A stretch of DNA of 9,071 bases from a virus (taxonomy: Duplodnaviria > Heunggongvirae > Uroviricota > Caudoviricetes). Within the stretch, counting starts at the first letter, position 1. The number at the start of each line of letters is the position of its first letter. Below the pieces are notes generated by a model. The model saw only the letters and a list, made by a program, of their open reading frames with translations. It was not told the origin of the DNA and did not search any database. Made by a program: the position numbers and the translations under genes. Positions 1,786-5,748 of the stretch are shown piece after piece. The stretch lies in IMG/VR virus record IMGVR_UViG_2654587570_000008; one strand, written 5' to 3'.

Positions 1786-2175
1786 ATGAGTATGTTTCAG
1801 ATATCAGCTGGAGTGTTCTTTGATTTAGATAAAATAGAAAAACACGATGGCACATTTGTTTTTTATTCAAATGTTGATGTGTCTTTCTCGGTGGAAAACA
1901 CCTCCCCTCTTTTTAAAGCAAATAAAATAAGTCATGATGGTATAAACTGTTATGTGGTAAACTATACTCTCCTGACCGAAAAACCAGAACGAATTGAAGC
2001 TGGAGTCGTAGTTAGGGCTGGTGATGAGGATTATAGGCAACAATTTATTTTATTATGGGAATTCTATTTTGATTGTGTGGCTAGAGTAGAAAAAGAATCG
2101 GTTAAAAAATATGTGCATTATCAAATTTTAATAAACATCACTCAAAAATTGCGCTTGAAGTTGCCCCATATTTAG
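1786..2175 (+). CDS. Hypothetical protein, 129 aa (cassette gene A); start may be the ATG at 1792
   Basis: ORF with an AAGGA Shine-Dalgarno at 1781-1785, better spaced for the ATG at 1792. Strongly AT-rich codon usage. Its TAG stop (2173-2175) shares one base with the GTG start of the next ORF. No recognisable motif or transmembrane segment. Confidence 0.6.
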   Translation: MSMFQISAGVFFDLDKIEKHDGTFVFYSNVDVSFSVENTSPLFKANKISHDGINCYVVNYTLLTEKPERIEAGVVVRAGDEDYRQQFILLWEFYFDCVARVEKESVKKYVHYQILINITQKLRLKLPHI

Positions 2176-3494
2176 TGGAGATTAACCGAAGAGTTTCATT
2201 TGATGATGTCTCTGGGTTTTCTGCTTTTATTAAAGATGTAGTGAATCTAAATAGATCTGCCTTTAAATCTTTAATGGCAGCGTTAAAAATAATTAGTGAT
2301 TCAAAAGAATCATTGTCAACCAACTTTGACCTGACTTATTCCATGTTAGTCTATGCCTTGGAGTCTTTGTCTCAAAGAAATGATAACTATAAGTCTGATT
2401 GGGATGACTACGATCAAAAAACCAGAGGTGAATTAGAGTCTGTATTTGAGCATATGCCTGGTGAGGATGTTTGTAAAATTAAATCAATACTTATTGAAGG
2501 CAAACAATTCAGATTACAAAAAAGGTTCAAAGATTTTATACTGAAAAATCTTGAAGAAAATTATTTCAATGAAACAGAGAGATATCCAATCCGCTATAGC
2601 TTCCTTAGTAGAGCTTTAGATAATTTATACAAAATCAGGTCTTCTTTTGTCCATGAGCTTAAGCCACTTGATGCAATGATCTCGAAAGCCTACAATCCTG
2701 TTGGTGATTGTCTGGTTCTTTTTGGCGAACCTCACTTCAGTTACTCTGGATTGCTTCGACTTCTTCGCCATGTGATAATAAATTTTTGCCGTAAAAACTA
2801 CAGTCAAAAAAGAGAGTATGTTAATTGGGTGATGGAAACATCGGGTGTAATGGTTGCAGAGATATCTGCACAATATTGGCTCTGGAATGCAGACGGATTT
2901 ACAGCTAAAAGTATAGCGAAGTGGTTTAGTGAATACCTAAATATGTTAAATTTAGGCGAAGTCACTGATTTGCAGTCTATCATGGACAAAATTGAGATAA
3001 TCTATGACCAATCCAAAAAAGAATATAAAAATGGGTTGTTGTATTTTTATTTCTTATATAACTTAATGCATAATGGAAATAAGGGTGAATGGCTTGAGTT
3101 TGCGAACAAGCGAAGTTCTATACTTGTTTGTGATATATATTGGTATTCATGCTCTCCATATTTATATAAATCATTTACTAATGTTTCAAATGGTATTGCT
3201 GATATAAAAACATTGAGAAACTTTTTGTCTTGTTTTAACGAATATGATAAAAATAAATTTAAGCCAAATCGTTTAAATCTCCCTGCAATGACCGAAGTAA
3301 TTATGTTGGCTTGCGCAGCAAATTCATTCTTCAGAATTGGAATGTATCAAGACTATGTTTTAATGGGCAATAGAGCGATGAGAGAAATTGCTTCAGTAAA
3401 AGATGTATTTTATTATATAAAAGAACGATTAAGTAATTCACAACTTATTGAATTGGACGAGTGCTTGAGATTGTATAGAAAAAAGGGGGGCTAA
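2175..3494 (+). CDS. Hypothetical protein, 439 aa (cassette gene B); possible HEPN-like Rx4H motif, unverified
   Basis: Long uninterrupted ORF in AT-rich DNA. It starts with GTG overlapping the upstream stop (TAGTG) and its stop TAA (3492-3494) overlaps the integrase stop. Contains R-SSFV-H at residues 155-160 (nt 2637-2654). No Walker A motif or transmembrane helix seen. Confidence 0.65.
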   Translation: MEINRRVSFDDVSGFSAFIKDVVNLNRSAFKSLMAALKIISDSKESLSTNFDLTYSMLVYALESLSQRNDNYKSDWDDYDQKTRGELESVFEHMPGEDVCKIKSILIEGKQFRLQKRFKDFILKNLEENYFNETERYPIRYSFLSRALDNLYKIRSSFVHELKPLDAMISKAYNPVGDCLVLFGEPHFSYSGLLRLLRHVIINFCRKNYSQKREYVNWVMETSGVMVAEISAQYWLWNADGFTAKSIAKWFSEYLNMLNLGEVTDLQSIMDKIEIIYDQSKKEYKNGLLYFYFLYNLMHNGNKGEWLEFANKRSSILVCDIYWYSCSPYLYKSFTNVSNGIADIKTLRNFLSCFNEYDKNKFKPNRLNLPAMTEVIMLACAANSFFRIGMYQDYVLMGNRAMREIASVKDVFYYIKERLSNSQLIELDECLRLYRKKGG

Positions 3495-3510
3495 CCCCTT
3501 TTATTTTTAA
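3483..3510. terminator. Candidate bidirectional terminator at the convergent gene ends
   Basis: Short GC stem GGGG (3487-3490) / CCCC (3495-3498) with loop CTAA, flanked by AAAA upstream and TTTTATTTTT downstream, so a U-tract follows the hairpin on both strands. The stem is short, so strength is doubtful. Confidence 0.35.
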
Positions 3511-4687
3511 CGTATTCACCCCACCAATCCATCAATTCAATTCGCTGCACGAGATAAGTAGAACGATTGTATGCTTTTCTAACTTCATTTTTATCACTGT
3601 GGGCTAAGGCAGACTCGATAACATCAGGATTTAATCCAGCTTCATTCATGGCTGTACTTGCTATTGAACGTAATCCATGGGCAACTAATTTTCCGCCAAA
3701 ACCAATACGTTTTAAAGCTGCATTTGCAGTCTGACTGTTCATTGGTTTCTTTGGGTCATTCCGACTCGGAAAAACATATTCACGATGAGCACTAATAGGC
3801 TTCATCACATTAAGAATCTCTAATGCCTGAGATGATAGAGGAATTATGTGTTCCCGTTTAGCCTTCATCCGTTCGGCAGGAATCGTCCAGAGCTTTGCAT
3901 GAAGATCGATTTCTTCCCACCGAGTACTGGAGGCTTCAGAAGGGCGCACAAGAGTCAGGAGTTGCCATTCAATTAGACAGCGAGTCGGGATAGACAGATT
4001 TGACATGACTAAAGAACGCATCAGCTTTGGTAATTCTTCAGGTCGAAGCGTCGGCATGTTTTGTTTTTTTGGCTTTTCGAAGGCCATGCCAACACCTGAT
4101 GCTGGGTTTGCATCAATCAAGCCAGTGTTAACCGCATAAATCATTATTTCGTTAATGCGTTGCACCAGACGACGTACAGTCTCTAATGCCCCACGAGCTT
4201 TGACTGGCTCAAGTGCTTCGACCAATGTTCTAGCTTTGATCTGCTGAACGGGCATCTCACCAACGGCGGGGAATACATCTTTTTCCAATGAGCGCCAAAT
4301 ATCTTTTGCATAATCAGGGGTAACACTTTTGCTTTTGAGCTGAAACCAATTAGCGGCGACCGTCGAGAAAATACTGTCCTGTGCGATTTGCTGCTGTTCC
4401 TCTGCAATTTCAGCTTGAATTTGCGGGTCAATTCCGTTGGCTAACAAGGAAAGGTAATCCGCTCTTAAGCGTCGGGCGTCAGCAAGTGAAAGGGCTGGGA
4501 AGGCTCCTAGCCCCATCATTGTCCGTTGCTTTGTTGCCGGACGTTGATAACGGAAACGCCATAACTTCTTACCGTTCGTTTTAACGAGTAGAAAAAGACC
4601 ATCGCCATCATGCAACGTTAGATCCTTTTCTAACGCTTTAGCGCGCAGTACTTCTGTGTTGGTCAGGGGGCGTGTCGTTCTTGCCAA
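3491..4687 (-). CDS. intA: P4-type (IntA-like) tyrosine integrase, site-specific recombinase
   Basis: 398-aa ORF. The N-terminus MARTTRPLT...DGDGLFLLV...KLWRFRY is typical of P4-family integrases, and the C-terminal catalytic region carries AHGLRSIAST (H-x-x-R) and a terminal Tyr in NRSTYL. It sits directly downstream of a tmRNA 3'-end att core, as intA does next to ssrA in E. coli K-12 CP4-57. Start codon is TTG (4685-4687) with an AAGGAG Shine-Dalgarno 8 nt upstream. Confidence 0.9.
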   Translation of the reverse strand: MARTTRPLTNTEVLRAKALEKDLTLHDGDGLFLLVKTNGKKLWRFRYQRPATKQRTMMGLGAFPALSLADARRLRADYLSLLANGIDPQIQAEIAEEQQQIAQDSIFSTVAANWFQLKSKSVTPDYAKDIWRSLEKDVFPAVGEMPVQQIKARTLVEALEPVKARGALETVRRLVQRINEIMIYAVNTGLIDANPASGVGMAFEKPKKQNMPTLRPEELPKLMRSLVMSNLSIPTRCLIEWQLLTLVRPSEASSTRWEEIDLHAKLWTIPAERMKAKREHIIPLSSQALEILNVMKPISAHREYVFPSRNDPKKPMNSQTANAALKRIGFGGKLVAHGLRSIASTAMNEAGLNPDVIESALAHSDKNEVRKAYNRSTYLVQRIELMDWWGEYVKNKRG

Positions 4688-4706
4688 TTTGGCCGCTCCT
4701 TCATGA

Positions 4707-4760
4707 ATTGGTATACGCGTTTAGGTATACATCCTACCGTATACCTAAACGTATACCAAT
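4707..4760 (-). promoter_or_regulatory. Long near-perfect inverted repeat upstream of the integrase start (candidate operator or integrase-regulatory site)
   Basis: Left arm ATTGGTATACGCGTTTAGGTATAC (4707-4730) and right arm GTATACCTAAACGTATACCAAT (4739-4760) are reverse complements apart from a 2-nt indel. They carry four GTATAC palindromic cores and lie about 20 bp upstream of the integrase Shine-Dalgarno. Confidence 0.4.
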
Positions 4761-4802
4761 AATCACTGGATTTAGCTGGATATCCTCGGACAACGGTAGA
4801 CA

Positions 4803-4838
4803 CAAAAAAGCCCGCAGAGCTTGTGCTATGCGGGCTTT
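4803..4838 (-). terminator. Intrinsic terminator on the minus strand, downstream of the tmRNA-end remnant
   Basis: Perfect 8-bp stem AGCCCGCA (4809-4816) / TGCGGGCT (4829-4836) with a 12-nt loop. On the minus strand the hairpin is followed by U6 (complement of A 4804-4809). Confidence 0.5.
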
Positions 4839-4871
4839 CAGGATTTCTCCGGACGTATCCGGAAGAGCAAG

Positions 4872-4907
4872 TGGTGGAGCTGGCGGGAGTTGAACCCGTG
4901 TCTGAAA
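4872..4907 (-). other. Attachment-site remnant: 3'-terminal ~36 nt of a tmRNA (ssrA) gene, without the gene body
   Basis: The reverse complement of 4872-4898 reads CGGGTTCAACTCCCGCCAGCTCCACCA, the T-arm/acceptor 3' end of E. coli tmRNA as I recall it. Similarity continues with 2 mismatches to about 4907 and is then lost in AT-rich DNA, so this is a junction core, not an intact gene. Confidence 0.7.
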
Positions 4908-4936
4908 AATATTAACCTGTTGTTTTAATTATATAT

Positions 4937-5404
4937 TTATCTGAACATGGCGTTTGCGGCGCTTTTGCGTATCTTCTCTAGACCTTTTGTAGTCCATTTC
5001 TCTGGTACAGGTGTAAACCGTAGTGCAAAATCTGCCTCCATATTATCACCACTGAAACGTGCCACTCCACGTTCCAATTTTGTTTGCCAAGTGACTTTTT
5101 TAGTTTTACCCTCTATATCTTGATATTCAATAATTAATTTTGGACCAGTGAATGATGAAGAACCGACTAATTTAAGTCTATGTGAAAGATATGCTATATT
5201 CAATAGAATATCAATTGCCGCGGTTGGTACAAAAATGTTTTTTGACTTCTTATCTATACTATATGGTAACGAAAAATCAATATCGTAAGGTGTCGATAAA
5301 GTATTGTACATATATACTTTTCTTTCTTTTATTATTTTGAATATTCCATACTGGGAGTCGGTTGTAAAAGATTTATCTTCTTTTTTGAATTTTTTCGAAA
5401 ACAA
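4937..5404 (-). CDS. Hypothetical protein, 155 aa; probably the C-terminal part of a frameshifted membrane-anchored protein gene
   Basis: AT-rich ORF with no ATG (first start candidate is TTG at 5402-5404), lying 14 nt downstream of the preceding ORF in the -1 frame. No recognised domain. Confidence 0.45.
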   Translation of the reverse strand: MFSKKFKKEDKSFTTDSQYGIFKIIKERKVYMYNTLSTPYDIDFSLPYSIDKKSKNIFVPTAAIDILLNIAYLSHRLKLVGSSSFTGPKLIIEYQDIEGKTKKVTWQTKLERGVARFSGDNMEADFALRFTPVPEKWTTKGLEKIRKSAANAMFR

Positions 5405-5418
5405 CTCTAAATATAGAT

Positions 5419-5715
5419 TTATGTTTTTTTATAATTAAAATCCCAATGATATCTAAGTGAAATTGCCGCCCCCAATCCTATGTTTGAAAATTTTGTTTGT
5501 GGAAGCGTAGGGGCTTGTAAGATATCAACATGAAAACCGTTGAAATCGTTAACATTCATCTTGATATTTAAAGTGTCTATCACTAAATTGGGTTTATAAG
5601 AGAGCCTTCTTTGAAATATCGTTAACCATATTGCATATAATGCAGCAATTGCTGAAATGAAAGTACCAACTGAAGATATGTAGGTGATTAGTTTGTCGAA
5701 TGTAATTGTAATCAA
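5419..5715 (-). CDS. Hypothetical protein, 98 aa, with an N-terminal transmembrane helix; probably the N-terminal part of a frameshifted gene
   Basis: AT-rich ORF with a hydrophobic segment ITYISSVGTFISAIAALYAIWLTIF near the N-terminus. TTG start (5713-5715) preceded by GGGGA. Ends in TAA just after an A7 run on the coding strand (T7 at 5424-5430 on plus). Confidence 0.5.
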   Translation of the reverse strand: MITITFDKLITYISSVGTFISAIAALYAIWLTIFQRRLSYKPNLVIDTLNIKMNVNDFNGFHVDILQAPTLPQTKFSNIGLGAAISLRYHWDFNYKKT

Positions 5716-5720
5716 CTTTA

Positions 5721-5748
5721 AATCCCCGATTTTAAAAATGCGGGGATT
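5721..5748 (-). promoter_or_regulatory. Stem-loop immediately downstream of int that includes the Shine-Dalgarno of the next gene
   Basis: Perfect 8-bp stem AATCCCCG (5721-5728) / CGGGGATT (5741-5748) with a 12-nt AT-rich loop. It lies between the int stop (5757) and the downstream ORF start (5715); the GGGGA Shine-Dalgarno is part of the stem. Confidence 0.3.

Follow-up and report, generated by a model that had tools for sequence, protein, structure and literature searches.

Does the AT-rich DNA between the integrase gene and the attachment site of this prophage encode two small proteins or one protein whose reading frame has been broken at a single base, and, if the latter, how did the break arise and what kind of gene was broken? 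The window, i.e. the whole 9,071-nt stretch of DNA that was analysed, is identical to contig JHTB01000077.1 of GCA_001266275.1. An earlier note made from its sequence had described a membrane-anchored accessory gene between att and int that is split by a frameshift in a T7 homopolymer, and had listed inactivation, phase variation, ribosomal or transcriptional slippage and assembly error as explanations. The relevant features of the window are as follows.

Upstream of int, minus strand: lambdoid prophage early genes (yfdR-like and others), followed by an excisionase-like small ORF.
5757-6929, minus strand: prophage tyrosine integrase of 390 aa (Pfam Arm-DNA-bind_2 and Phage_integrase), immediately upstream of the cargo gene.
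5721-5748, minus strand: conserved hairpin between the int stop and the start of the cargo gene (AATCCCCG...CGGGGATT), from folding and covariation.
4937-5715, minus strand: the whole cargo gene, phrog_7259 family, encoding 259 aa with an A8 run and frameshifted in the window.
5419-5715, minus strand: ORF1, 98 aa, TTG start, from the ORF list.
4937-5404, minus strand: ORF2, 155 aa, TTG start, from the ORF list.
5424-5430, minus strand: A7 run on the coding strand (T7 on the plus strand), the site of a one-base contraction from A8, from the run census.
4872-4898, minus strand: attR core, 27 nt identical to the 3' end of ssrA (tmRNA), 38 nt past the stop of the cargo gene.
3491-4687, minus strand: P4-type integrase of a second element.

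The two ORFs are collinear on the minus strand and separated by 14 nt; the ORF list and the run census confirmed all of the coordinates in the earlier note, including this gap and the T7 run at plus-strand positions 5424-5430. Direct reading of the minus strand gave ...AAT TAT AAA AAA ACA TAA at the 3' end of ORF1, which stops at a premature TAA (5421-5419), while the frame of ORF2 (-1) is open from 5428. Addition of one A to the A7 run yields ...YKKNINLYLELFSKKF... and a fused product of 259 aa, compared with about 258 aa in the note. In its intact form, A8, this run is the longest homopolymer in the cargo gene. ORF1 contains the transmembrane helix (residues about 9-34), a QRRLSYKP motif and an invariant N-I-G-L-G-A-A motif, and its exact 98-aa product is present on eight short contigs, seven of which are shown. 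ORF2 comprises the C-terminal 60% of the protein and aligned with residues 105-259 of intact homologues. No good ribosome-binding site was seen by direct reading upstream of its TTG at 5404. The G+C content across 4937-5715 is 32.3%, compared with 44-47% for the adjacent int, intA and early genes, in agreement with the earlier description of the region as AT-rich.

Intact relatives are plentiful. An 861-nt query spanned 862 nt in 50 of 50 matching complete E. coli genomes, each of which has one hypothetical protein annotated at this position. The sequence in NZ_CP018991 differs from the window at only two places in 862 nt, the missing A and a SNP at 5342, and is annotated as a single CDS of 259 aa (WP_127490476.1). 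The exact repaired protein (P0038) was found on 69 contigs and a one-residue variant of it (P0037) on at least 999, such that exact intact proteins occur together on at least 1,068 contigs. Homologues with 40-95% identity numbered 21 and came from Escherichia, Enterobacter, Klebsiella, Cedecea and Citrobacter; 19 of them are single proteins with lengths of 246-269 aa, and the other two have 188 and 197 aa. A profile search of 1.84 billion representatives (50% identity clusters) returned 707 clusters; nearly all of the best 150 of these are 230-290 aa in length, with one uninterrupted match crossing the break. The repaired protein matched phrog_7259 with an E value of 2.1e-85 (residues 7-259 on profile positions 6-270 of 277), as did 49 of 49 diverse relatives. 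The window allele departs from the single protein of about 230-290 aa that is found in this family, encoding 98 and 155 aa instead.

The predicted structure is also continuous over the break. The protein modelled was P0002, which is 89% identical to the repaired protein and was used in its place. The AlphaFold model had a pLDDT of 78.9 and a pTM of 0.71, and a helix at residues 95-110 spans the junction with a pLDDT of about 96.

ORF1 and ORF2 could in principle be naturally separate genes for a small membrane protein and a soluble partner, as each ORF has a possible start codon. However, the only split homologues are the same one-base variants, the P0002 model is one continuous fold over the junction, and ORF2 is without a convincing ribosome-binding site. 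We reject this arrangement, which has next to no chance of being correct, because every homologue is a single ORF. Comparison with intact homologues, which had been suggested as a check, therefore gave single ORFs and no naturally two-gene form, and supports the original claim that one gene was split by a single-base homopolymer change. We conclude that 4937-5715 is one gene of about 259 aa, not two, and that the window allele is a disrupted member of phrog_7259. For annotation, the interval is best recorded as a single disrupted gene and not as a pair of hypothetical proteins.

The representative of the 90% cluster, P0001 (WP_407241446.1), reads YKKHKSIFRVVFEKIQKEDK. This protein looks doubly shifted, with an out-of-frame stretch between two A runs, and searches based on representatives consequently understate identity to the true protein.

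To establish the status of the A7 run we turn to closely related assemblies. Six further assemblies share the arrangement of the window at ≥99.96% identity over 8-9 kb. The run varies in length among these near-identical isolates, as is seen at contingency loci: A7 is present in four clone assemblies including the window, which have four different accession prefixes (JHTB; JHQY, L046; JBFOBC, L043; JBFOBF, L009), and A8 is present in three (JHSV, L045; DABEOK, L047; and the Logan assembly of SRR10271917, L048). The contigs with each run length are listed below.

A8 contigs: L001, L018, L023-L028, L030, L045, L047 and L048.
A7 contigs: L009, L029, L043, L046, L051 and L052.

The clone assemblies differ only at the A run, at an intergenic G run (1559-1566) and at a SNP at 7172. 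At the G run, the window has G8, whereas two clone-mates have G9 and a more distant relative has G10. G8/G9 and A7/A8 vary independently, with all four combinations found among the clone assemblies. The T/G SNP at 7172, which lies inside a 71-aa ORF (7156-7371), sets the window apart from all six clone-mates.

Contigs with other allele backgrounds likewise have A7 as their one indel: L004, L005, L007, L029, L051 and, across the gene region, L052. At least three backgrounds carry A7: the I and M variants, and an M variant that also has a SNP in the hairpin. Broken alleles are outnumbered by intact alleles by more than ten to one. The 69 contigs with a 124-aa C-terminal fragment are unusable as a count of frameshift alleles because they include contig-end cuts (L053 and L054) and the error-laden L049. 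From these comparisons we conclude that contraction of A8 to A7 appears to be a recurrent event at the longest run of the gene, and that A7 in the clone of the window is most probably a real inherited allele.

The alternative that the missing A is a sequencing or assembly error, such that the strain truly carries an intact A8, is unlikely. The affected run is the longest in the gene, and A7 was also read in contigs rich in homopolymer errors, among them L003 and, with 13, 5 and 4 gap openings respectively, L002, L006 and L008. L049 has three miscalled runs and reads A11, and P0001, judged from its protein sequence, appears doubly shifted. Moreover, compared with its nearest relatives, the window is short at both runs of eight or more in the region and long at none. 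These observations are countered by the occurrence of A7 in four clone assemblies with four different accession prefixes. No other indel accompanies A7 over 0.9-4.7 kb in the 104-kb contig L051 and the IMG isolate genome L029. In addition, an A7 to A6 contraction at 2103, in a second accessory gene of the window, is fixed in all clone assemblies read, which marks it as a genuine allele rather than noise.

Three shorter runs had raised the suspicion that a long-read assembly had under-called homopolymers systematically. This possibility was downgraded because the window is a 9,071-bp draft contig, its clone-mates share A7, and A6 at 2103 is fixed.

Could the A run instead be a contingency tract, with A8 as the ON state and A7 as a reversible OFF state by which lysogens shed a costly or self-targeting function? 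Several observations are consistent with this idea: A7 and A8 coexist among near-identical isolates, A7 arose in at least three allele backgrounds, and the distributions of the A run and the G run conflict, implying repeated change in at least one of the two tracts. The same clone also carries a second frameshifted accessory gene. However, eight A residues constitute a short tract, and A8-type runs in E. coli slip far below classical phase-variation rates. Intact alleles prevail over broken ones, and A9 was not seen except in one error-laden contig. Furthermore, the run is not kept in diverged alleles, which have A5-A6 or no run at this position, and its absence there argues against both a maintained contingency tract and programmed recoding. 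The gene resembles slipped-strand pseudogenes and phase-variable genes in that its product is cut short by contraction of a mononucleotide run whose length varies among close isolates. It differs from slipped-strand phase variation in that its run is short (8) and not conserved in the family. We consider a contingency tract improbable.

Programmed decoding of A7, in which -1 frameshifting or transcriptional slippage would give the full protein plus a 98-aa form, is more improbable still. A runs are slippery sites in E. coli, e.g. in dnaX and IS1, and the exact 259-aa sequence would be regained if tRNA-Lys shifted by -1 within AAA AAA A or if RNA polymerase inserted one further A. However, the heptamer is imperfect, with a T preceding the run, and no stimulatory element was identified. 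The in-frame A8 prevails in close relatives. Whereas recoding genes such as dnaX, IS1 insAB' and those of IS3-type elements would be expected to have a conserved two-frame layout and slippery run, neither is conserved here: all homologues are single ORFs and the slippery run is missing from diverged alleles.

The reading that we favour, with good but not full confidence, is that slipped-strand loss of one A created a null allele, so that the gene in the window would be a young pseudogene with no designed switch. Of the four explanations in the earlier note, inactivation is thereby the best reading. Programmed slippage falls on the single-ORF homologues and the absence of the A run from diverged alleles, while assembly error and phase variation become less likely given A7 in four clone assemblies and as the sole indel in other backgrounds. 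In mechanistic terms, A8 has contracted to A7 in this contig, probably by a slip, and translation from the TTG at 5715 stops after 98 residues. The truncated product retains the membrane helix and the first small beta-sheet but not the remaining ~160 domain residues. At most, a trace of full-length protein might be made by a -1 slip of tRNA-Lys or by stuttering of RNA polymerase on A7. The frameshift is an ordinary inactivating mutation and is routine in itself; the gene family is more useful than the frameshift.

What, then, is the gene? Its position is informative. The attachment site assigned in the earlier note was borne out, as 4872-4898 comprises 27 nt identical to the 3' end of ssrA. 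This attR core is followed by the ssrA terminator and then by the P4-type integrase gene. Rfam gave a partial tmRNA match at 4872-4947 (E = 6e-5), and similarity to a genome without the downstream island stops at 4872. ARAGORN detected neither a tRNA nor a tmRNA gene in the window, since ssrA is represented there by the 27-nt fragment alone. The proposed cargo slot is likewise real, since the gene lies between int and the att site of an ssrA-integrated prophage. Rfam also gave a weak, partial match to IsrM, a Salmonella island sRNA, on the minus strand at 4804-4911 (31 bits, where the gathering score is 376). This match spans the 3' fragment of ssrA and the terminator, and probably reflects shared att/terminator sequence.

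The same slot is found in other elements. In each of 14 viral contigs the gene lies ~45 nt past the same integrase, and no other gene separates it from an ssrA-type att site or the contig end. The order xis-int-gene-attP(ssrA) holds in all 14 of these contigs, in Klebsiella, at another E. coli locus and in the isolated phage LLS, for which attP was placed at the ssrA 3' end with integration at ssrA (PMC12315714). Across the same loci the integrase is 86-100% identical, compared with 26-100% for the cargo gene. This combination of a conserved integrase and a diverged cargo gene indicates that the slot holds a fast-evolving or exchanged cassette. More distant family members were found after the integrase of a P2-like prophage and beside a P4-type integrase, and remnants in Enterobacter and Cedecea have kept the gene beside int fragments. 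The gene is situated at a module boundary in a temperate phage and its G+C content of 32% contrasts with the 44-47% of its neighbours, as is characteristic of morons.

The Enterobacter hormaechei remnant (L011-L014, 4791-8160) adjoins smpB/ssrA, with conserved unknown genes of 272 aa and 191 aa on its flanks. In Cedecea neteri (L010, 4621-6804) the gene adjoins an AbiTii-domain gene, and a SymE toxin gene is nearby.

The arrangement shares with integrase-side cargo hotspots a fixed slot beside the integrase in which diverged or unrelated cargo is exchanged between conserved flanks. Moreover, a family member follows a P2-like integrase, and a P4 psu-int hotspot gene lies next door in the window. 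It differs from such hotspots in that the ssrA lambdoid prophages examined hold diverged alleles of one family rather than many different systems.

The junction between int and the cargo gene contains a conserved hairpin. The sequence from 5700 to 5765 folds at -16.4 kcal/mol (z = -4.4), and the hairpin is kept in 10 diverged alleles with compensatory changes at 8 of 12 pairs. Besides the window, it occurs at the corresponding position in L011, L015, L017, L022, L028, L032, L034, L035 and L036. The sequence of the outer stem is fixed (AATCC.C / G.GGATT), while the inner stem covaries. The 3' arm holds a GGGGA Shine-Dalgarno sequence 7 nt before the TTG start of the window gene. Across alleles this sequence is GGGGA or GAGGA and lies 5-10 nt before a start codon that is often TTG or GTG. 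These features point to a hairpin that hides the Shine-Dalgarno sequence and would thereby restrain translation. It is possible that the hairpin also ends or processes int transcripts. Promoter-like sites between 5792 and 5746 were not above background, with 8 sites compared with 5.7 ± 2.5 in shuffled sequence. The tI/sib region of lambda lies downstream of int, and the hairpin resembles it in being a conserved stem-loop directly after int that could end or process int transcripts. It differs in preceding a cargo gene, in its predicted occlusion of the Shine-Dalgarno sequence and in the absence of a clear U tract.

The N-terminal transmembrane helix proposed in the earlier note was supported by a hydropathy peak of 1.99 at residues 16-34 and by a modelled helix at residues 6-39 of P0002. 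Residues 7-42 are nearly invariant among alleles that are only 40% identical overall, and carry the small-residue pattern SSxGTxxSAxAAxxA. The invariant core of the wider family is N78-x-G80-x-G82-x-A84. The helix is preceded by MITITFDK and followed by QRRLSYK, and because of these flanking charges the positive-inside rule would predict a single-pass inner-membrane protein with an N-out/C-in topology and a domain that is probably cytoplasmic.

The repaired protein matched nothing in Pfam, NCBIfam or PADLOC, and 49 diverse relatives gave no PADLOC match and no consistent Pfam match. A profile search of PDB sequences with the family had no match. Foldseek searches of the PDB and of viral models returned no fold match, and none to a characterised defence or exclusion protein. 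In the phage collection, a DNA search gave no match and a protein search identified gene 31 of phage LLS only, at 26% identity. The LLS paper is silent on gene 31 (PMC12315714), and literature searches with the family, its protein accessions and the assembly accessions found nothing. phrog_7259 is thus a widespread family, with 707 clusters at 50% identity, that is without annotated function.

From its position, diversity and membrane anchoring, we infer that the gene may act in phage exclusion or defence; the exclusion or lysogenic-conversion role suggested in the earlier note would follow from position. The intact protein would consist of an inner-membrane anchor with a highly conserved helix rich in small residues, and a fast-diverging cytoplasmic domain. 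Masking of the Shine-Dalgarno sequence by the hairpin, together with starts at TTG or GTG, would keep translation of the protein low. The integrase-end position, the cassette-like hypervariability and the survival of the gene in decayed remnants would fit superinfection exclusion or abortive infection, and a fixed integrase-side position with evolution far faster than that of int is the pattern seen for phage-against-phage weapons. HK97 gp15, P22 SieA and lactococcal Sie2009 are prophage superinfection-exclusion cargo genes. The cargo gene shares with them its occurrence as a single temperate-phage gene near the integration/immunity end, a predicted membrane anchor, low G+C content and high allelic diversity. 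It differs from them in that no sequence or fold similarity to known exclusion or defence proteins was found and in that most of the protein is predicted to be cytoplasmic, not periplasmic. Our broader proposal is tentative and more likely wrong than right: phrog_7259 may be a hitherto undescribed membrane-tethered anti-phage family, acting by exclusion or abortive infection, that occupies a dedicated and rapidly exchanged slot between int and attP in ssrA-integrating lambdoid prophages and in other temperate elements, has its dose lowered by the hairpin and, in E. coli, has repeatedly been shut off through the A8 run as costly. For a defence screen, the intact allele offers an inexpensive and clearly defined candidate, and the natural A7/A8 pairs within one clone are ready-made isogenic controls.

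Two unrelated integrative elements lie in tandem at ssrA (3491-4898 and 4872-9071). An LLS-type lambdoid prophage is on the side continuing from ssrA; beyond the displaced 3' end of ssrA comes a P4-like satellite, which has an integrase of its own. Another E. coli (L036) has a comparable tandem, with a SIR2-HerA pair in its satellite. The window corresponds to an entire draft contig of 9,071 bp. An IS3-family transposase gene at one end interrupts the psu gene of the satellite, and long contigs of clone-mates have an IS1 element following the other end (relevant coordinates 1-888, 854-1312 and 8991-9071). The presence of IS elements at both ends indicates that the contig breaks at repeated insertion sequences.

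The second AT-rich accessory gene of the window (1786-3494, plus strand) is split by a contraction at 2103-2108, with A6 here and A7 in NZ_CP123059. In the latter genome it is intact as a single 567-aa CDS (WP_074507673.1), and the intact form was found on 137 contigs. The window encodes 129 and 439 aa instead, and the split allele is fixed in every clone assembly read. This gene occupies the psu-int hotspot of the P4-like satellite (PMC9122126), and PADLOC matched it weakly to ApeA (E = 7e-6).
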